From: a virus
Lineage: Duplodnaviria; Heunggongvirae; Uroviricota; Caudoviricetes
Strand: one strand, 5' to 3'
Length of the DNA stretch: 23,498 nucleotides
Virus record (IMG/VR): IMGVR_UViG_2537561944_000018
Shown here: in pieces, positions 2,137 to 23,498 of the stretch
How positions within the stretch are numbered: the stretch's first letter is position 1
How the letters are laid out: each line of letters opens with the position of its first letter
Translations under genes and position numbers: made by a program
Notes under the pieces: generated by a model
Database searches by the model: none
Told to the model about the DNA's origin: nothing
Seen by the model: only the letters and a program-made list of their open reading frames with translations

Positions 2137-2449
2137 CGAATTTCTCCCGTGTACAGGAACAGAGTTAAAAAGCCGGAACCGGAATCAAATTACAGGATGG
2201 CCATCTGCCAGTGGCTGGTCGTAAAAAAAGGCCACGCCATGCGCAGCCGGAAATAAAGGGATAACGATGATAGTTTGAGAAAAACAGAAACAACACTTTT
2301 GTGGCAAAGCATGGTGCCGGGTGCCTCCCGGTGAATTCAGTATCAGCACCTGAATCCGCGATTATCCCATATACCTGGTTGCTGATCGCCCCTCCGCACA
2401 GGGGGATTCACCATGCAGAAGTGTTTTTAATAAACAGCAAACAAAAAAA

Positions 2450-3214: not shown

Positions 3215-3291
3215 TGGCGCGTTGTAGTGGAGTCGAACCACTGACCGATTGCTTAGAAGGCAATTGCTCTGTCCGACTGAGCTAACAACGC
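3215..3291 (-). tRNA. tRNA-Arg (anticodon UCU), CCA encoded
   Basis: 77-nt cloverleaf: acceptor GCGTTGT/ACAACGC, D-arm GCTC..GAGC, anticodon stem ATTGC/GCAAT with loop CTTCTAA, T-arm AGTGG-TTCGACT-CCACT. Confidence 0.9.
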
Positions 3292-3304
3292 ATGATGCTG
3301 ATAA

Positions 3305-3381
3305 TGGACCGCCATCGGGGACTTGAACCCCGCGCAGCCAGCTTCGAAGGCTGGCGCTCTGTCCCGATGAGCTAATGGCGG
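3305..3381 (-). tRNA. tRNA-Arg (anticodon UCG), CCA encoded
   Basis: 77-nt cloverleaf: anticodon stem CCAGC/GCTGG with loop CTTCGAA, T-loop TTCAAGT; acceptor pairs CCGCCAT with ATGGCGG (C1-G72). Confidence 0.8.
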
Positions 3382-3390
3382 TATGTGATA

Positions 3391-3466
3391 TGGTGGCCCT
3401 TGCTGGATTTGAACCAGCGACCTGGCGATTATGAGTCGCTCGCTCTCACCACTGAGCTAAAGGGCC
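3391..3466 (-). tRNA. tRNA-Ile2-like (anticodon CAU; Met not excluded), CCA encoded
   Basis: 76-nt cloverleaf GGCCCTT...AAGGGCC with anticodon loop CTCATAA; closely resembles E. coli ileX as recalled; first of a three-tRNA cluster as in Stx-type phages. Confidence 0.85.
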
Positions 3467-7148: not shown

Positions 7149-7406
7149 ATGCGTACAACCCAACAATTCAGCATTACATTAACTAACGAAATGGCTGACA
7201 TGGTGCGCGCCCGTGTGGCTTCCGGTGCCTATGCTTCAGAAAGCGAGGTCATTCGTGAAGGGCTTCGCGCACTGAATGAGCGCGATAAAGCAATCGAAGC
7301 GTGGTTAACGCATTCAGCCGCCCCCTCTCTTGATTCTATCCGCGAAAATCCAAACAACGGACGCTCCATTTCACAGGTTCGCGCCGCGATTCGATCCGGG
7401 AAGTAA
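7149..7406 (+). CDS. parD: ParD/CopG-type RHH antitoxin, 85 aa
   Basis: ATG at 7149 with GTGAGG 6 nt upstream; ...ASESEVIREGLRALNERDKAIEAWL typical of ParD-like antitoxins. Confidence 0.75.
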   Translation: MRTTQQFSITLTNEMADMVRARVASGAYASESEVIREGLRALNERDKAIEAWLTHSAAPSLDSIRENPNNGRSISQVRAAIRSGK

Positions 7407-7411
7407 TCTGC

Positions 7412-7711
7412 ATGACATATGAAGTCATCATTACTCCTGAGGCCGAACAACAAATAATCAACCTGCACAGGTATATAACGGAGAAAGCAGGGAACGTCAT
7501 TGCTGACAATTATGCCAATGCGCTTCTTGATTATCTTGATGGGTTTTCTACATTCCCGCATCGGGGCAATAAACGCGATGATATTCGCCAGGGGATGCGG
7601 GTAACTCATTTCCGCCACAGAACGATTATTGCTTTTGCCGTTGATAGCAGAAAAGTCTTTATTGTCGGTATCTATCATGGTGGGCAAAGTTATGAAACCG
7701 ATTTCTTATAA
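7412..7711 (+). CDS. parE: ParE/RelE-superfamily toxin, 99 aa
   Basis: Starts 5 nt after the antitoxin stop; RelE/ParE fold signature (...RQGMRVTHFRHRTIIAFAVDSRKVFIVGIYHGGQSYE). Confidence 0.8.
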   Translation: MTYEVIITPEAEQQIINLHRYITEKAGNVIADNYANALLDYLDGFSTFPHRGNKRDDIRQGMRVTHFRHRTIIAFAVDSRKVFIVGIYHGGQSYETDFL

Positions 7712-11687: not shown

Positions 11688-12024
11688 AAGCGCCTCCGGC
11701 AATCACTTTTCCGATACAACACGGCGGGAAGAATCAGTAATCTGTCGAACAATATCCCGGTGCTTGTTCAGCTCCCGCAGCGCGGCGCAGACTCGCTCCC
11801 ACTTCTGAACCTGACCTTTTGCCCGGCGCAGCTCGCGGTTAGCCACATGCAGCGATGGTAAAATCAGACCATCCGGATGTTTTCTGGTGAACGACGGCTG
11901 TGACTGCACTGTGACCGCCACACTTTCCGTTTTTATTTCTTCCTGTGTTTCTGCTTCCCGTGAGGTAGCCTGAGTTTAACGGACACTCCTTCCTGAAATA
12001 GAATGGCATCAGAAGGAGCTAATA

Positions 12025-12327
12025 ATGAGCAGAAAAACCCAACGTTACTCTAAAGAGTTCAAAGCCGAAGCTGTCAGAACGGGTCTCGAAAATCAACTTT
12101 CGATCAGTGAAGGCGCTTCCCGATTATCTCTTCCTGAAGGCACTTTAGGACAATGGGTTACCGCCGCCAGAAAAGGGCTCGGTACTCCTGGTTCCCGCAC
12201 GGTGGCTGAACTGGAATCTGAAATTCTGCAACTGCGTAAGGCGTTAAATGAAGCTCGCCTTGAGCGAGATATATTAAAAAAAGCAACAGCGTATTTTGCA
12301 CAGGAGTCGCTGAAAAATACGCGTTAA
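12025..12327 (+). CDS. IS3-family transposase OrfA (HTH), 100 aa
   Basis: ATG at 12025; MSRKTQRYSKEFKAEAVR... typical IS3-family OrfA with a leucine-zipper-like C-terminus. Confidence 0.8.
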   Translation: MSRKTQRYSKEFKAEAVRTGLENQLSISEGASRLSLPEGTLGQWVTAARKGLGTPGSRTVAELESEILQLRKALNEARLERDILKKATAYFAQESLKNTR

Positions 12328-13181
12328 TCGAACAATGGCGACAACAATTTCCCATTGAAGCGATGTGTCAGGTATTTGGTGTATCCAGGAGCGGTTATTA
12401 CAACTGGGTACAGCATGAACCCTCAGACAGAAAACAAAGTGATGAGCGGCTAAAACTGGAGATTAAGGTGGCACATATCCGCACTCGCGAAACATATGGA
12501 ACCCGGCGGCTCCAGACGGAGCTGGCAGAGAATGGCATCATCGTTGGTCGTGACCGACTGGCACGTCTTCGTAAGGAGCTAAGGCTACGCTGTAAGCAGA
12601 AACGCAAGTTCAGAGCGACTACGAACTCGAACCACAATCTGCCAGTTGCGCCAAATCTGCTGAACCAGACGTTCGCTCCTACAGCACCAAATCAGGTCTG
12701 GGTGGCGGACCTGACGTATGTTGCCACACAGGAGGGATGGTTGTACCTCGCTGGCATCAAAGATGTTTATACGTGCGAAATTGTCGGCTACGCCATGGGA
12801 GAGCGCATGACAAAAGAGCTGACAGGTAAAGCTCTGTTTATGGCGCTCAGGAGCCAGCGCCCACCTGCCGGGCTAATCCACCACTCTGATCGAGGTTCAC
12901 AGTACTGCGCATACGATTACCGGGTCATACAGGAGCAGTTTGGTCTGAAAACATCAATGTCGCGTAAAGGTAACTGTTACGACAACGCTCCGATGGAAAG
13001 CTTCTGGGGAACGCTGAAAAATGAGAGCCTGAGCCACTATCGTTTTAATAACCGGGATGAAGCCATCTCAGTAATACGGGAATACATTGAGATTTTCTAC
13101 AATCGTCAGCGTCGTCACTCTCGTCTGGGGAATATCTCCCCGGCAGCCTTCAGGGAAAAATATCATCAGATGGCTGCTTAA
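12264..13181 (+). CDS. IS3-family transposase OrfB (DDE/rve integrase domain), made as an OrfAB fusion by -1 frameshift
   Basis: The -1 frame is open from 12264; slippery A AAA AAA G at 12276-12283 inside orfA; DDE motifs (...HHSDRGSQY...YDNAPMES...). Confidence 0.75.
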   Translation, partial: ARYIKKSNSVFCTGVAEKYALIEQWRQQFPIEAMCQVFGVSRSGYYNWVQHEPSDRKQSDERLKLEIKVAHIRTRETYGTRRLQTELAENGIIVGRDRLARLRKELRLRCKQKRKFRATTNSNHNLPVAPNLLNQTFAPTAPNQVWVADLTYVATQEGWLYLAGIKDVYTCEIVGYAMGERMTKELTGKALFMALRSQRPPAGLIHHSDRGSQYCAYDYRVIQEQFGLKTSMSRKGNCYDNAPMESFWGTLKNESLSHYRFNNRDEAISVIREYIEIFYNRQRRHSRLGNISPAAFREKYHQMAA

Positions 13182-13728
13182 AAAAAGAACAAATGGTAGT
13201 GTCCGCTATTGCCAGTACACCTCACCGAACTGGTAACGCAACACCTGCTGGCTGAGGAAAGGCTTTACCATCGGTTTCCGCTACGGATGCAGCTTCCGGC
13301 TCTGCCGGTAAATCAGCGCCCGGTATGCAGTAACGAAATTTACCGCCCTGATTCACGCGAATCAGACGCCCTTTGCTGATTACCATGGCCAGCGATGAAT
13401 TCGCCCGGCGGGAGGTAATCCCGAACATCAGTGCCAGCTCATCCGCCGTTTGTGGGCCATGTTGTTCAATCGCCTCAGTCAGCATTTGCGCTGTCACTTT
13501 CGGTACCGGTGACACCGGTTCACTTTCACCAGCCTGAATCAGCCACCACATCGACCCCTTGTTATCCGCTTCACCGCGGCGCTTCAGTTTCCACAGTTCG
13601 TTGACCGCATCTTCACGGCTGATTCCAAGGCGGGCCGCCACTACCTGTGAAGAGGCTCTTTTCAGTGCTTTCAGTGCGTCAAATACGGTTTCCATTAAAA
13701 TTTCCTCCGACAAAATCGTTTCTCAGAT

Positions 13729-15974: not shown

Positions 15975-16100
15975 GTTTCCCTCCGAACTTTACGATGACA
16001 CCGATAATTACAAATTTAAATTTAAATTTCAACTTCTATTTGTAATGCCACTTATCAATTTTTTCTGTAGGATCGCGGAACTAGTTTACGAGGGGTGGTG
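15975..16100. promoter_or_regulatory. Divergent promoter/operator region between the Cro-like and repressor genes
   Basis: Contains AATTACAAATTTAA (16006-16019) and its inverted partner ATTTGTAA (16038-16045) flanking a TTTAAATTTAAATTT repeat; candidate -35/-10 elements on both strands. Confidence 0.5.
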
Positions 16101-16493
16101 ATGATCTTTGTAAAACGCCTTCAGCAGGTGTTGCAGGAATTGAATATAAACCAGTCAGAGCTGGGAAGACGTCTTGGTGTAAAACCCCAATCCGTGCAAG
16201 GTTGGTTGAAAGGCGTGATGCCAAGAATGGATAAACTGGAAAAATTAGCAGAGCTCTCACAACATCCCGTCCATTGGTTCTTTATGGAAGAAGAAACTCT
16301 CGGCGATAAAATGGCTGTATCCAGTAATGACAACCAACCGCAACTTACAGAACAACAACGAAAAATCATATCGCTTTTAGATGAGTTACCTCAAAGCGAC
16401 GCAGAGCAGATCATTCGTGATATGGAGCAAAAACGCGATTTCTATAAACGGAAACTTGAAGAGTTACTGCGGCAGAAAAACAAAACTGCCTGA
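16101..16493 (+). CDS. DicA-like prophage repressor (HTH-XRE), 130 aa
   Basis: ATG at 16101 with AGGGG 5 nt upstream; N-terminal HTH LNINQSELGRRLGVKPQSVQGWLKG and a DicA-like C-terminus (...LPQSDAEQ...YKRKLEELL) as recalled. Confidence 0.8.
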   Translation: MIFVKRLQQVLQELNINQSELGRRLGVKPQSVQGWLKGVMPRMDKLEKLAELSQHPVHWFFMEEETLGDKMAVSSNDNQPQLTEQQRKIISLLDELPQSDAEQIIRDMEQKRDFYKRKLEELLRQKNKTA

Positions 16494-16539: not shown

Positions 16540-16898
16540 TTATAATCCAACCAGGCTTTCCAGGGGGATACCAAATTGATTATGAAGACGGCGAATCATT
16601 GGTAACGTAAGGCTTCTGGTACCATTCAACACCTCATAAACCCGATTTTTTTTCCCAATTGCGGGTTCCAAATCTTTCACAGTCAGCCCCTGCTGTTCCA
16701 TGCGAAATCTTATAGCTTCAATTGGGGATGGTGGCTCAATGGGATAATGTTTTTTTCATATTCCTCTATTAGCAAACACATCACCTCAAAAAAATCCCCC
16801 TCAGGCGTGTCAATTTCGGGCTCATTGTCGAACATGGGTTCAACAGCACGCAACGCGGCTTCATAATCTTGCTCTGTACGAATAGGTTTGATGTTCAT
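16540..16898 (-). pseudogene. higA: HigA-like antitoxin, frameshifted at an A7 tract
   Basis: The N-terminal 62-codon ORF (16898-16710) stops shortly after an A7 run (plus T7 16750-16756); the -1 frame continues through an HTH-XRE domain to TAA 16542-16540. One extra A would give a 120-aa protein. Confidence 0.65.
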
Positions 16899-16900
16899 GC

Positions 16901-17203
16901 TTACTCCAGTTCGATGGTATCAGCATCAATAGCATCGTATTCCTTGTGGTTTCCGATGAATTTAACAAATACCCATCCTCGCTGATACGCAATTGCAACA
17001 ATTAAACGGTAATGATTACCTTTTATGTTGAATACCACGCGCCGGTTTTTCAATATACTGGCCGTTCGGTATTGTGCCTTAATGTCTGCTGGGCTTTTCC
17101 AGTCAGCTTTTGCCGCCTCATCCACCCATGCCCTTAGCGGTTGTTCTGCATCAGGATTCTCCGCCCAAAAATCCCTGAGTGTTTTAACTGAGATAATCTT
17201 CAT
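16901..17203 (-). CDS. higB: HigB-family toxin (RelE/ParE superfamily), 100 aa
   Basis: ATG at 17203; ...VVFNIKGNHYRLIVAIAYQRGWVFVKFIGNHKEYD matches the E. coli HigB motif VFNVGGNELRVV...THKEYD as recalled; toxin-first order, stop 2 nt before the higA ATG. Confidence 0.75.
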   Translation of the reverse strand: MKIISVKTLRDFWAENPDAEQPLRAWVDEAAKADWKSPADIKAQYRTASILKNRRVVFNIKGNHYRLIVAIAYQRGWVFVKFIGNHKEYDAIDADTIELE

Positions 17204-17246
17204 AACTGTATAGTAGTCCCATTTTGGGACTGATGCAACAGCCCGC

Positions 17247-17300
17247 AATTACAAATTTAATAATAAACATGTTGACCAGTTAAATTTTAATTTGTAAATT
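17247..17300. promoter_or_regulatory. Second operator-like site with candidate rightward promoter (PdicB-like) upstream of higB
   Basis: Exact 14-mer AATTACAAATTTAA (17247-17260) plus inverted ATTTGTAA (17290-17297); plus-strand TTGACC (17272-17277), 17-bp spacer, TAAATT (17295-17300). Confidence 0.45.
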
Positions 17301-17616
17301 GTATCCATAAACCCACCCCGCCCCACAGAACGCAGGGCAATACTTCGAGTTACCCGGCAGTGGTCAGGGGTTAAGTAGCCAGCCTGAGGCGTATGAACAT
17401 GACGGCGGGGATTACGTTTAACTATGCAGCAGGTTTTTTGTTCCGCTACCCCGGCGTTAAGGGGAAACAGAGGATTTCTCAGTGGGCGAAGTCAAACATC
17501 AGAATGGAAGGCATCCAGGGATCAGCAAAGAAACAGCGATGGCGCTTTATATTGATATCAGCGCCATTGCCGGACAGGTAAGAATTATCAGAGCGGTAAC
17601 TAAGCGGTATGCGCCT

Positions 17617-17817
17617 TTACTTCAGAAAGTCTCTGGTGAGTGCACCGAAGATATTGTCAACGATTTCGTCATCAAACTGCGAGGACTCATCTTCAGTTAC
17701 AAGGTGACCACAATTTTTGCAGATGGCTCCCGCGAAACTGTCAGAGCCATGCGGTTTAAAGGATGTGTCAAAGACTTCGCCACCACATACTGGGCAAGAA
17801 AACTTGATTGTATTCAT
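17617..17817 (-). CDS. Small zinc-ribbon protein (CxxC-N20-CxxC), 66 aa
   Basis: ATG at 17817 with GAGAGGAA 7 nt upstream; CPVCGG...CKNCGH. It lies antisense to a 118-codon plus-strand ORF (17482-17838), so the call is uncertain. Confidence 0.45.
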   Translation of the reverse strand: MNTIKFSCPVCGGEVFDTSFKPHGSDSFAGAICKNCGHLVTEDESSQFDDEIVDNIFGALTRDFLK

Positions 17818-17909
17818 AACCAATTTCCTCTCGAGTAACAGACCCCTCAGAGGATACCACCTCGCCTGACGTGGTTAAAAGCAGGCAGCGCTAACCACAA
17901 GGAGCCGAC

Positions 17910-18128: not shown

Positions 18129-18468
18129 TAGCTAACCAACGAAGCTAAGGTTGGTAATTAAGGAGTTCTCCACGGGTGAGGTGGAGTGCGTGCGCCGGAC
18201 ACGGGTGAGCATCCGGCACTGACAGTTTACTGAAAGGATATTCCCTGAAAAGTCAGACCATAACGCGAAAGCGCACGGCGAGGTAGCTGGTTCATAGATA
18301 GCCTGTCGTTAAATTTTCGTCGACCGTGCGCTTCCGGTTGTGGCAATCCGCGAAATGGCGCGGCGGTAAGTATGGCGGGGTTATTCCTTCCCCAGTTGAG
18401 GACACCGGGTTGTCAGGTTGACCATACGCTTAAGTGACAACCCCGCTGCAACGCCCTCTGTTATCAAT

Positions 18469-18526
18469 TTTCTGGTGACGTTTGGCGGTATCAGTTTTAC
18501 TCCGTGGCTGCTCTGCCGCCCTTTTT
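18469..18526 (+). ncRNA. dicF: DicF small regulatory RNA with its U-tail terminator
   Basis: TTTCTGGTGACGTTTGGCGGTATCAGTTTTACTCCGTGGCTGCTCTGCCGCCC followed by T5; matches the DicF sequence as recalled, with one apparent A-to-G difference; lies just upstream of the dicB homologue. Confidence 0.8.
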
Positions 18527-19163: not shown

Positions 19164-21083
19164 ATGAGTAAAGTCTTTATTTGCGCCGCCATTCCGGACG
19201 AACAGGCAATAAAGGAAGAAGGTGCAGTCGCTGTAGCCACTGCCATTGAAGCCGGTGATGAACGTCGCGCCCGCGCAAAATTTCACTGGCAATTCCTGGA
19301 ACATTATCCGGCTGCTCAGGACTGCGCTTATAAATTTCTTGTTTGCGAGGATAAACCCGGTATTCCCCGCCCTGCCCTCGATTCCTGGGATGCTGAATAT
19401 ATGCAGGAAAACCGCTGGGATGAGGAGTCTGCTTCCTTTGTCCCGGTTGAGACTGAATCAGATCCGATAAACGTCACTTTTGACAAGCTGGCCCCTGAAG
19501 TACAGAACGCTGTCATGGTTAAGTTCGACACATGTGAAAACATCACCGTTGATATGGTGATTAGCGCGCAGGAACTGTTGCAGGAAGACATGGCAACATT
19601 CGACGGACATATCGTTGAAGCGTTGATGAAAATGCCAGAAGTTAACGCCATGTATCCGGAGCTTAAGCTGCATGCCATCGGGTGGGTTAAGCATAAATGT
19701 AAGCCAGGTGCCAAATGGCCCGAAATTCAGGCAGAGATGCGCATCTGGAAAAAACGTCGCGAAGGTGAACGCAAGGAAACCGGAAAATACACGTCTGTTG
19801 TTGATCTCGCCCGCGCCAGAGCCAATCAACAGCACACTGAAAATTCAACAGGAAAAATCAGCCCGGTCATTGCTGCCATTCATCGCGAATACAAGCAGAC
19901 ATGGAAAACACTGGATGACGAACTGGCCTACGCTCTCTGGCCTGGTGATGTGGATGCCGGAAACATTGACGGCAGCATCCATCGCTGGGCAAAAAATGAA
20001 GTTATCGACAACGACCGCGAAGACTGGAAGCGTATCTCGGCATCAATGCGCAAACAGCCTGATGCCCTTCGCTACGACCGCCAGACTATTTTTGGCCTTG
20101 TCCGTGAACGTCCGATCGACATTCACAAAGACCCTGTGGCACTGAACAAATACATTACTGAATACCTGACTACAAAGGGCGTGTTTGAAGATGAAGGAAC
20201 AAATCAGAGCGCAACTGATACTCTCTCGTCGCCAGTACCAGAAACTGATGCAGTGGAAACGGCAATTCCGGACAACGAAAAAACCGAATGCAAAGTGGAA
20301 GTCGAACCATCTGTAGAGCGTGAGGGGCCGTTCTACTTCCTCTTCACCGACAAGGATGGCGAAAAATACGGTCGCGCAAACAAACTTTCTGGTCTGGATA
20401 AGGCACTGGCTGCCGGGGCTACTGAAATCACGAAAGAAGAATATCTTGCCCGCAAAAACGGAACATACACGGACTTACCGCAAAATGTGGATACCGCTGA
20501 AGATTCCGTACAACCGGAGCCGGTAAAAGTTACCGCTGACGAAGTAAACAAAATTATGCAGGCAGCCAATATCAGCCAGCCTGACGCCGATAAATTGCTT
20601 GCTGCATCACGTGGTGAATTTGTTGAAGGGATTAGCGATCCGAATGATCCGAAATGGGTGAAGGGGATTGAAACCTGCGATTCTGTGAACCAGAACCAGC
20701 AAGAATCGGAACAGAACGACCAGAAAACGGAACAAAACAGCCCAAATGCGCAACAAAACGAGCCAGAAACGAAACAGGAGCCGGAAAAAGCCTGCACCGC
20801 CTGCGGTCAGACCGGCGGCGGTAGCTGCCCTGATTGTGGTGCGGTGATAAGTGACGCAACATACCAGGAAATATTCGATGAAGAGAATCAGCCTGAAGTT
20901 CAGGAAAATGATCCGGAGGAAATGGAAGGCACTGCGCATCAGCACAAGGAGAACACTGGCGGCAATCAGCATCATGCCAGCGATAGTGAAACTGGCGAGG
21001 CGTCAGATCCCTTAATTAAGGCGAACGGTCATCATAATCTCACATCACCAGCAGAGCGGGATTCATCTGATGATCGACCTTGA
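19164..21083 (+). CDS. Large YdfE-like protein of unknown function, 639 aa, acidic Q/E/N-rich C-terminus with a Cys4 motif
   Basis: ATG at 19164 with GAGGT upstream; CTACGQTGGGSCPDCG near the C-terminus; occupies the ydfE position after ydfD; no enzymatic motif recognised. Confidence 0.7.
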   Translation: MSKVFICAAIPDEQAIKEEGAVAVATAIEAGDERRARAKFHWQFLEHYPAAQDCAYKFLVCEDKPGIPRPALDSWDAEYMQENRWDEESASFVPVETESDPINVTFDKLAPEVQNAVMVKFDTCENITVDMVISAQELLQEDMATFDGHIVEALMKMPEVNAMYPELKLHAIGWVKHKCKPGAKWPEIQAEMRIWKKRREGERKETGKYTSVVDLARARANQQHTENSTGKISPVIAAIHREYKQTWKTLDDELAYALWPGDVDAGNIDGSIHRWAKNEVIDNDREDWKRISASMRKQPDALRYDRQTIFGLVRERPIDIHKDPVALNKYITEYLTTKGVFEDEGTNQSATDTLSSPVPETDAVETAIPDNEKTECKVEVEPSVEREGPFYFLFTDKDGEKYGRANKLSGLDKALAAGATEITKEEYLARKNGTYTDLPQNVDTAEDSVQPEPVKVTADEVNKIMQAANISQPDADKLLAASRGEFVEGISDPNDPKWVKGIETCDSVNQNQQESEQNDQKTEQNSPNAQQNEPETKQEPEKACTACGQTGGGSCPDCGAVISDATYQEIFDEENQPEVQENDPEEMEGTAHQHKENTGGNQHHASDSETGEASDPLIKANGHHNLTSPAERDSSDDRP

Positions 21084-21612
21084 AACCATGGGAAAAAATC
21101 CTGATGCCCCGATTATCTCAATAGGTGCAATATTTTTCGATCCGCAAACCGGAGAGATGGGGCCAGAATTCAGCAAAACTATCGATCTGGAAACTGCTGG
21201 CGGAGTCATTGATCGGGACACCATTAAGTGGTGGCTGAAACAGTCACGCGAAGCGCAATCCGCCATTCTTACCGATGAAATCCCGTTAGATGATGCACTG
21301 CTGCAATTACGGGAATTTATCGACGAAAACTCCGGTGAATTTTTTGTTCAGGTCTGGGGTAACGGTGCAACTTTCGACAACGTGATTTTACGCCGTTCAT
21401 ATGAACGGCAGGGGATCCCCTGCCCGTGGCGTTACACCAATGATCGCGATGTAAGAACGATGGTTGCTCTGGGACTGGTGATGGATTTCGACGCAAGAAC
21501 GACTATTCCATTCGAAGGTGAACGCCATAACGCTCTGAACGATGCACGTTACCAGGCGAAATACGTTTCAGCCATCTGGCAAAAACTGCTCCCGAGTCAG
21601 GCTGATTTTTGA
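21070..21612 (+). CDS. DEDDh-family (DnaQ-like) 3'-5' exonuclease, 180 aa
   Basis: Exo motifs IDLETMG, WGNGATFD and HNALNDARY; start overlaps the upstream gene by 14 nt. Confidence 0.8.
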   Translation: MIDLETMGKNPDAPIISIGAIFFDPQTGEMGPEFSKTIDLETAGGVIDRDTIKWWLKQSREAQSAILTDEIPLDDALLQLREFIDENSGEFFVQVWGNGATFDNVILRRSYERQGIPCPWRYTNDRDVRTMVALGLVMDFDARTTIPFEGERHNALNDARYQAKYVSAIWQKLLPSQADF

Positions 21613-22316: not shown

Positions 22317-23207
22317 TCAGGCTGCCAGATCATTATTTCCGATGGAAGCATAATAAGCTTTTTCTGCTTCTGCCGGAGGAATATGGCCCAGCCTTTCCAG
22401 CAATCGTCGATTGTTATACCAGTCCACCCACGTTAGTGTGGCCAGTTCCACTTCTGTCCGGTTTTTCCAGCTATTACGGTGTATTACCTCCGCTTTGTAA
22501 AGACCATTGATGCTCTCAGCCATCGCGTTGTCATACGAGTCGCCAGTACTCCCTGTTGATGCCAGTAATCCGGCTTCCTTAAGCCGCTGCGTGTAGGCCA
22601 GCGATACATACTGAGAACCTTTATCACTGTGATGGATTGTGCCGGACGGCCGACGGGCCCACAACGCCTGCTCCAGTGCATCCAGCACGAATGTTGTTTC
22701 CATGGATGATGAGACCTGCCATCCCACGATGTATCCGGCGAACACATCAATGATAAACGCCACATAAACGAAGCCCTGCCATGTGCTGACCCAAGTAAAA
22801 TCAGCCACCCACAACTGGTCTGGACGTTCTGCCACGAACTGACGGTTTACGCGGTCGCATGCGGCAACGGCTTTCCGGCTGACGGTAGTGCGGACCTTTT
22901 TACCCCGGAGAACACCGGCAAGCCCCATAACTGCCATGAGACGTGCCACAGTGCATCTGGCCACTCTGATACCTTCCCGTAACAACTGACGCCAGACTTT
23001 ACGCACACCGTATACCTGGTGATTTTCATCGTATACGCGCTGTATCTCTTTCTTCAGCCAGTCATCGTGCTGCGCACGGGCACTGCGTTTATCCGGATGA
23101 TGTCGCTGTTGCTGACAATGGTAATACGTTGACGGGGCAATATGCAGTTCGCTGCATACCGGTCCGACCCCGTACTGCTCACGCAGCTTATCCAGCAGTG
23201 GCATCAT
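22317..23207 (-). CDS. IS629-like transposase OrfB (DDE), about 296 aa from MMPLL
   Basis: DDE/rve motifs (...HHSDKGSQY...YDNAMAES...); the frame stays open upstream to 23297, overlapping orfA for frameshift fusion. Confidence 0.75.
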
Positions 23208-23498
23208 TTTTCCAGAGGCGGTCGAACTCCGCCTTCGCAAAATAAGCGGAAGCCTGGCGAAGGATATCGTTACTGCGGCGCAGTTCACGATTTTCACGTT
23301 CCAGCTCTTTCAGACGCTGACGTTCAGCACTGGTGAGCCCACCATCACCGCCCCCGGTATCCCGCTCATGCTGGCGAACCCAGACACGCAGAGTCTCCGG
23401 CGTACAGCCAATCTTTGGGGCAATGGAACAAATTGCCGCCCACTGTGAGTCATATTCATCCTGACTTTCCAGAACCATACGAATCGCCCGCTGACGGA
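23188..23498 (-). CDS. IS629-like transposase OrfA, 5'-partial (start lies beyond the window)
   Basis: ...[39 protein letters not shown]...[26 protein letters not shown]; HTH and leucine-zipper region of IS3-family OrfA. Confidence 0.75.

Follow-up and report, generated by a model that had tools for sequence, protein, structure and literature searches.

A missing adenine in a draft assembly very probably explains the split higA antitoxin gene of a prophage higBA module

The higBA-like module beside the repressor gene of this prophage raises a simple question: is the antitoxin gene divided between two reading frames in the strain itself, as the deposited sequence has it, or was a single base lost in sequencing? 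The window (the whole stretch of DNA analysed, 23,498 nucleotides) is an entire draft contig, AFAI02000009.1 (GCA_000194725.2), which was identified through an exact match to a 53-aa fragment and whose sequence the window reproduces letter for letter. The window shares 99.9% identity with a prophage of Shiga-toxigenic Escherichia coli (STEC) of serogroups O26, O103, O111, O45 and O121. On the minus strand, positions 16540-17203 hold an intact higB followed by higA, the two parts of which lie in different frames and are joined at a G-A7-C run. The features of the locus are as follows.

16901..17203, minus strand: higB, RelE-superfamily HigB toxin gene, 100 aa, intact (from the open reading frame, Pfam and homology)
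16540..16898, minus strand: higA antitoxin gene, 359 nt here and 360 nt in all relatives (from three-frame translation)
16710-16898, minus strand: the 62-aa ORF of higA as deposited, which is accompanied by a 53-aa ORF at 16540-16701
16750..16756: T7 (A7 on the coding strand), one base missing relative to the A8 of relatives (GAA AAA AAA, E-K-K)
16646..16653: second A8 run within higA (G-K-K-N), intact in the window (from the list of runs)
16095..16493, plus strand: prophage repressor gene (HTH_3, DicA/cI-like; PF01381 and PHROG transcriptional regulator/repressor families)
17272..17300, plus strand: PL-like promoter candidate, TTGACC-17-TAAATT, with flanking AT-rich inverted repeats (9/12 consensus match)

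The 62-aa ORF, read from 16898 to 16710, is HigA-like through residues 1-49, and its final 13 residues are out-of-frame junk. The helix-turn-helix (HTH) part of higA is open in the -1 frame up to the stop codon at 16540, and the frame junction on the minus strand reads GAA AAA AAC. The stop codon of higB and the start codon of higA are separated by 2 nt, and 46 nt separate the higA stop at 16540 from the repressor gene, with which higBA is transcribed convergently from the opposite strand and from a putative promoter of its own. The module lies between the repressor gene and the early-left ydfC-DicF-dicB-exonuclease operon. The PL-like candidate at 17272..17300 faces this operon, but its number of consensus matches is not above chance expectation, and the designation as PL-like is a weak one drawn from position. 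The prophages of the O26, O103, O111, O45 and O121 STEC strains have the same neighbours as the window, namely a DicA-like repressor, YdaS, YdaT, DnaT/P replication genes and ydfC-DicF-dicB.

Several other elements of the contig were recorded. Adjoining higBA are two overlapping ORFs on opposite strands, 17482-17838 (plus) and 17617-17823 (minus), on which RefSeq annotations differ: some give the plus-strand ORF as "hypothetical protein" and others the minus-strand ORF as "ECs_2282 family putative zinc-binding protein". Another type II toxin-antitoxin pair, annotated in the reference as a ParD antitoxin and a RelE/ParE toxin, lies at about 7149-7711 (plus) and includes a 99-aa ORF at 7412-7711. 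Rfam models located the DicF sRNA at 18470-18521 (plus), upstream of dicB, and the STnc100 sRNA with three tRNA genes (Ile, Arg and Arg in the reference) at 2273-2445 (minus) and 3218-3466 (minus). The contig also carries a 1264-bp IS600-like element at 11961-13224, inserted within the DUF1627 gene of the reference prophage. This site is empty in the near-identical finished prophages L003, L004 and L039, and the element matches the IS600 copy of L004 at 99.8% identity.

The identity of the two genes was established by profile and sequence comparison. HigB matched the Pfam family PF09907 (HigB_toxin) over the whole profile (positions 1-74 of 74) with an E value of 4.8e-33 and 113.7 bits (cut-off 27), and aligned to HigB of E. 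coli K-12 (5IFG_A/5YCL_B) at E 3e-7, the HKEYD motif being present in both. The gene is identical at 303/303 nt to that encoding WP_000692026.1 in O26:H11 strain 11368. After addition of one A, higA is identical at 360/360 nt to higA of the same strain, which encodes the 119-aa WP_001022415.1. The repaired HigA scored 27.1 bits against HTH_3 (cut-off 23), and its residues 6-112 aligned in a single stretch to K-12 HigA (5IFG_B/5YCL_A) at E 3e-9. This single alignment, together with the identity restored by one base, shows that the two halves are one gene and not a chance pairing. One continuous ORF covering both parts, although absent from the deposited window, is present in every complete genome that has the locus. 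These results uphold the initial annotation in its reading of a toxin-first HigB/HigA module, in its placement of the module between the repressor and the early-left operon (the slot of rexAB in lambda) and in its assignment of the N-terminal and HTH parts to different frames, split at the A7 tract, as three-frame translation confirmed. The length of 120 aa that it gave for the joined product needs correction, since the intact protein has 119 aa.

The module is a standard two-gene type II toxin-antitoxin operon that is already annotated in RefSeq; newer PGAP annotations name WP_001022415.1 "type II toxin-antitoxin system HigA family antitoxin". Neither protein matched an NCBIfam profile, so the HigA and HigB names of PGAP come from other evidence. 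When the INPHARED phage genomes were searched with a 1-kb region, only the last 90 nt of the query matched, indicating that the higBA module is absent from that collection. In E. coli chromosomes the module is plentiful, and prophages of non-O157 STEC commonly carry it, in conserved form, within their immunity region.

The abundance of the locus allowed the length of the run to be compared among many independent sequences. A 65-nt query across the run of the window gave a 66-nt match in all 148 complete E. coli genomes with the locus; that is, A8 was present in 148/148 and the A7 of the window was matched exactly in 0/148. Likewise, A8 was found in 20/21 IMG/VR contigs, the exception (L025) being a draft contig of DEC11C, AIGX01000087, and in 2/2 metagenome contigs. 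In the protein collection, the intact 119-aa protein occurred in at least 1000 contigs whereas the 62-aa fragment was counted on 15 contigs and read on 17. The NCBI drafts with A7 all have low GCA numbers (GCA_000194725.2, GCA_000250155.2, GCA_000249835.2 and GCA_000276865.1); the other sources were strain EPECa14, through a protein accession, and a small number of assemblies of Logan runs, among them those of the later runs SRR12127174, ERR4564087 and ERR7474453 and seven similar places, as well as those of SRR040459, SRR094961 and DRR002667. The A7 contigs do not form one lineage: the exonuclease mosaic of DEC11C is a different one, and SRR12127174 shows 27 differing sites over 3.7 kb. Significantly, both A8 runs of higA were one A short in two contigs, L027 (AKAX01000104) and L032 (ERR4564087). 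Such paired shortening points to length-dependent base-calling error, an artefact of the platform and not of inheritance. A scan of GTDB species representatives for the run pattern gave no match and was uninformative. Another draft-assembly frameshift in higA was seen in L087 (IMGVR_UViG_2563366977_000001), where one extra base follows the run at a distance of a few nucleotides (CATTATTCCAATT as compared with CATTACCCAATT; 358-nt match).

The remainder of the contig was compared with L003, L004 and L039, from which the window differed by 6-7 single-base deletions and 0 insertions. The deletion at 16750 was shared by 0/148 complete genomes, that at 18241 in the ydfC-DicF spacer by 0/3243 complete-genome records, and those at 21046 and 21058, 12 nt apart, by 0/809 complete genomes. 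Two further differences were rejected as private deletions: T7 at window position 191 is a natural polymorphism found in 432 complete-genome records, and the deletion at 23207 is not strictly private, A5 being present in 68/5558 E. coli records. The 22-kb region has three 8-nt homopolymers; relative to L003, two of them lacked one base, one of these two being the polymorphic site 191. In a contig that otherwise matches many finished genomes at 99.9% identity, error in sequencing or assembly accounts for the four private differences, all of them deletions, far better than mutation does.

Two genes in this part of the contig deserve separate mention. The RecE-like exonuclease gene (19164-21612, plus strand), which encodes 816 aa in relatives, is here split into ORFs of 639 and 180 aa by the deletions at 21046 and 21058, and this split looks like an artefact of the same class as that of higA. 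An IS3-family transposase at 23133-23248 (minus strand) contains the Rfam ALIL pseudoknot (115.7 bits) and is a genuine programmed-frameshift element; one base of its slippery A6 run is missing from the window, which has A5 at about 23207.

Taken together, these data make it very probable that the split of higA is due to homopolymer under-calling, with one A lost from the A8 run in draft sequencing or assembly. One A of GAA AAA AAA would have been dropped in the production of AFAI02000009.1, and the strain most probably carries an intact 360-nt higA. Consistent with this reading, higB is intact, even though the antitoxin that goes with it would be truncated. From the accession range we infer that the GCA_000194725.2 assembly dates from the pyrosequencing era. 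Three points weigh on the other side. Some of the deletions in the window fall in short runs (T3, C2 and G4), which is less typical of pure under-calling. A8 runs are true mutational hot spots. Finally, A7 also appears in the later Logan runs, and accurate short reads in those runs would mean real A7 mutants.

These points lead to the strongest of the other explanations, a real, strain-private deletion of one base in A8, by which higA would be a frameshift pseudogene or a hypermutable-tract variant. Homopolymers of the A8 class mutate fast, and A8 is the longest homopolymer class in the region; moreover, at least three sequence backgrounds, later sequencing runs included, have A7. A cell with such a deletion would survive through an N-terminal part of 49 residues that still neutralised HigB, or through poor expression of the operon. 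The high mutation rate of long homopolymer runs is documented (PMC4066793) and counts for such a deletion, and in Vibrio cholerae the N-terminal segment of HigA2 alone is enough to inhibit the toxin (PMC5416850), so that by analogy a truncated antitoxin could be tolerated. However, V. cholerae HigA2 and the HigA of the window are members of different HigA subfamilies. Further, A7 was absent from all of the complete genomes, the contig has other private deletions with no insertions, two of them close together in the exonuclease gene, and the two contigs with both runs shortened implicate the sequencing method. A private deletion is thus unlikely, though the most credible of the explanations that take A7 to be real.

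Less probable still is a related reading in which the A8 run and its twin 104 nt downstream form a genuine hypermutable or slippage-prone tract that switches expression of the module. Loss of an A in the DNA, or in some of the transcripts, would then yield an N-terminal-only HigA fragment, which might neutralise HigB yet not repress the operon. Were this so, a prophage toxin-antitoxin module, possibly an anti-phage one, would have a heritable or stochastic expression switch, and real variants would account for part of the A7 cases that recur in several independent assemblies. The sufficiency of the N-terminal segment of V. cholerae HigA2 for neutralisation (PMC5416850) lends this reading some plausibility too. 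The lack of conservation of the run among relatives argues against selection for such a switch.

Programmed recoding is the reading in which A7 is the working form of the gene. The initial annotation had raised a -1 ribosomal slip on A AAA AAC, or an extra A from transcriptional slippage, as routes to the joined protein; either would supply a small amount of full-length HigA and would fix how much N-terminal-only neutraliser there is relative to the full-length repressor-antitoxin. The -1 slip product would have 119 aa with K50N. The slippery motif is indeed present and in the correct frame, with the downstream part in the -1 frame, and the heptamer is a genuine one: it is a proven E. coli -1 frameshift signal in IS1, where it functions with no established stimulator (PMC4066793). 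However, the two-frame layout is not conserved, the gene being in a single frame in every one of the complete genomes, in all but one of the IMG/VR contigs and in both metagenome contigs. In relatives with 86-94% protein identity a single frame encodes the peptide EKKHYPI, and the run varies at synonymous sites, with codons GAG AAA AAG (A5), GAG AAA AAA (A6) or GAG AAG AAA (no run of 4 or more). The retention of the peptide while synonymous changes break the run indicates selection on the protein and not on the slippery nucleotide string.

The sequence GAGG is found about 6 nt upstream of the run, but it consists merely of Glu-Glu codons, and it is closer than the spacing known from dnaX to stimulate -1 shifts. 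Downstream RNA structure was absent: the 96 nt around and after the run had a minimum free energy of -14.3 kcal/mol, as compared with a mean of -16.2 for shuffled sequences (z +0.70). Such structure is not strictly required, as IS1 illustrates. Judged by the comparative sequence data, programmed recoding as a property of the higA family is refuted, and as an account of the window it is scarcely credible. The independent sequences had A8 with an intact gene, and the related intact modules lacked the homopolymer; both findings, which the initial annotation had named as refuting, speak against -1 frameshifting and transcriptional slippage alike, and the homopolymer sequencing error that the initial annotation had offered as its alternative is the explanation now favoured.

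The lost adenine carries a lesson for quality control, in that one dropped homopolymer base convincingly mimicked a recoding site, complete with a proven slippery heptamer and a correct frame. Artefact and recoding can be separated by the frequency of the allele in finished genomes, by synonymous variation of the run in relatives and by the indel spectrum of the contig.

With an intact higA very probably present in the strain, regulation of the module may be considered from the sequence upstream of higB, where two further features were placed.

17210..17238, minus strand: putative higBA promoter, TTGCAT-17 nt-TACTAT (from conservation across divergent loci)
17215-17231: palindrome AGTCCCA-N3-TGGGACT, a perfect 7+7 inverted repeat in the -35/-10 spacer

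The candidate target DNA for HigA binding is AGTCCCAAAATGGGACT. In a consensus promoter scan the higBA promoter fell below threshold, so the promoter was called from its conservation in divergent loci. The arrangement of -35, palindrome and -10 is kept in divergent loci that have different flanks (L062-L067 and L074), which supports the palindrome as a candidate HigA operator. The higB start codon is 6 nt after the -10 element in the variant found in the window (17204-17238, minus strand), and the higB mRNA of this variant is therefore probably leaderless. L062-L067 have the same promoter and palindrome, but with a leader of about 27 nt that contains a AGAAGGAA Shine-Dalgarno sequence. The higA gene has a GGAG Shine-Dalgarno sequence. 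Translation of a leaderless higB and a GGAG-led higA would hold synthesis of the toxin below that of the antitoxin. By homology, HigB would act as a ribosome-dependent mRNA endonuclease and the 119-aa HigA would neutralise it through its N-terminal part; the C-terminal XRE helix-turn-helix of HigA is predicted to repress the operon by binding the palindrome in the promoter spacer.

The closest known counterpart of the module is the pair WP_000692026.1/WP_001022415.1, to which it is nucleotide-identical except for the missing A, so that A7 in place of A8 is the sole difference between the modules. The window differs from the prophages that carry this pair by the extra IS600-like insertion elsewhere. 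The HigB/HigA system of E. coli K-12 (YgjN/YgjM; PDB 5IFG, 5YCL and 6KML) is more remote. It has the same toxin-first operon, a HigB of about 100 aa that belongs to PF09907 and bears a C-terminal HKEYD motif, and a HigA in which an N-terminal helical part precedes an XRE-type HTH; both proteins align end to end with those of the window. The K-12 operon is reported to have a single palindromic operator bound by a HigA dimer (PMC10135005), and a single strong palindrome is present in the window as well. However, the sequences are distant (E 1e-7 to 1e-9), HigA has 119 aa here and 138 aa in K-12, and the module of the window is prophage-borne, in an immunity region, with a higB mRNA that looks leaderless.

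The module was also compared with the anti-lambda system PD-lambda-2. HigB matched the PADLOC profile PD-Lambda-2_A (PDLC03979) at E 1.1e-40 over positions 1-96 of 97, and the repaired 119-aa HigA matched PD-Lambda-2_B at E 2e-42 over positions 1-119 of 402. PD-lambda-2 comprises a HigB-like protein, a HigA-HTH-peptidase fusion and a P4-antitoxin-like third protein required for defence (Vassallo et al. 2022, PMC9519451). The C-terminal ImmA/IrrE-type peptidase domain of PD-lambda-2B has no counterpart in the higA of the window, which stops at 16540, and the third gene is absent, as the 46 nt before the repressor gene leave no room for it. With two of the three components lacking, membership in PD-lambda-2 was rejected; judged by its sequence, the higBA of the window is a two-gene relative of this validated three-gene system. 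In PD-lambda-2 the B protein is toxic and A rescues (PMC9519451), which calls for caution in the assignment of roles. Given that the window HigA has no peptidase domain, the canonical roles, HigB as toxin and HigA as antitoxin, appear more likely.

Two-frame organisation around the same heptamer is found in insAB' of IS1, which has A AAA AAC in the same relative frames. In IS1 both the layout and the motif are conserved, whereas in higA only a few draft assemblies show the layout, and relatives differ in the run. The position of the module also has precedents, paaR2-paaA2-parE2 of the cryptic prophage CP-933P and rexAB of lambda being accessory cargo beside the repressor (PMC8630535, PMC9986795). 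As in these, higBA lies between the repressor and the PL region of a lambdoid prophage, here one with YdaS/YdaT regulators. Those modules, however, are co-transcribed with the repressor, whereas higBA is on the opposite strand, convergent and under its own putative promoter, and the toxin family of paaR2-paaA2-parE2 is a different one. A role for higBA in prophage maintenance or phage exclusion would not be unusual.
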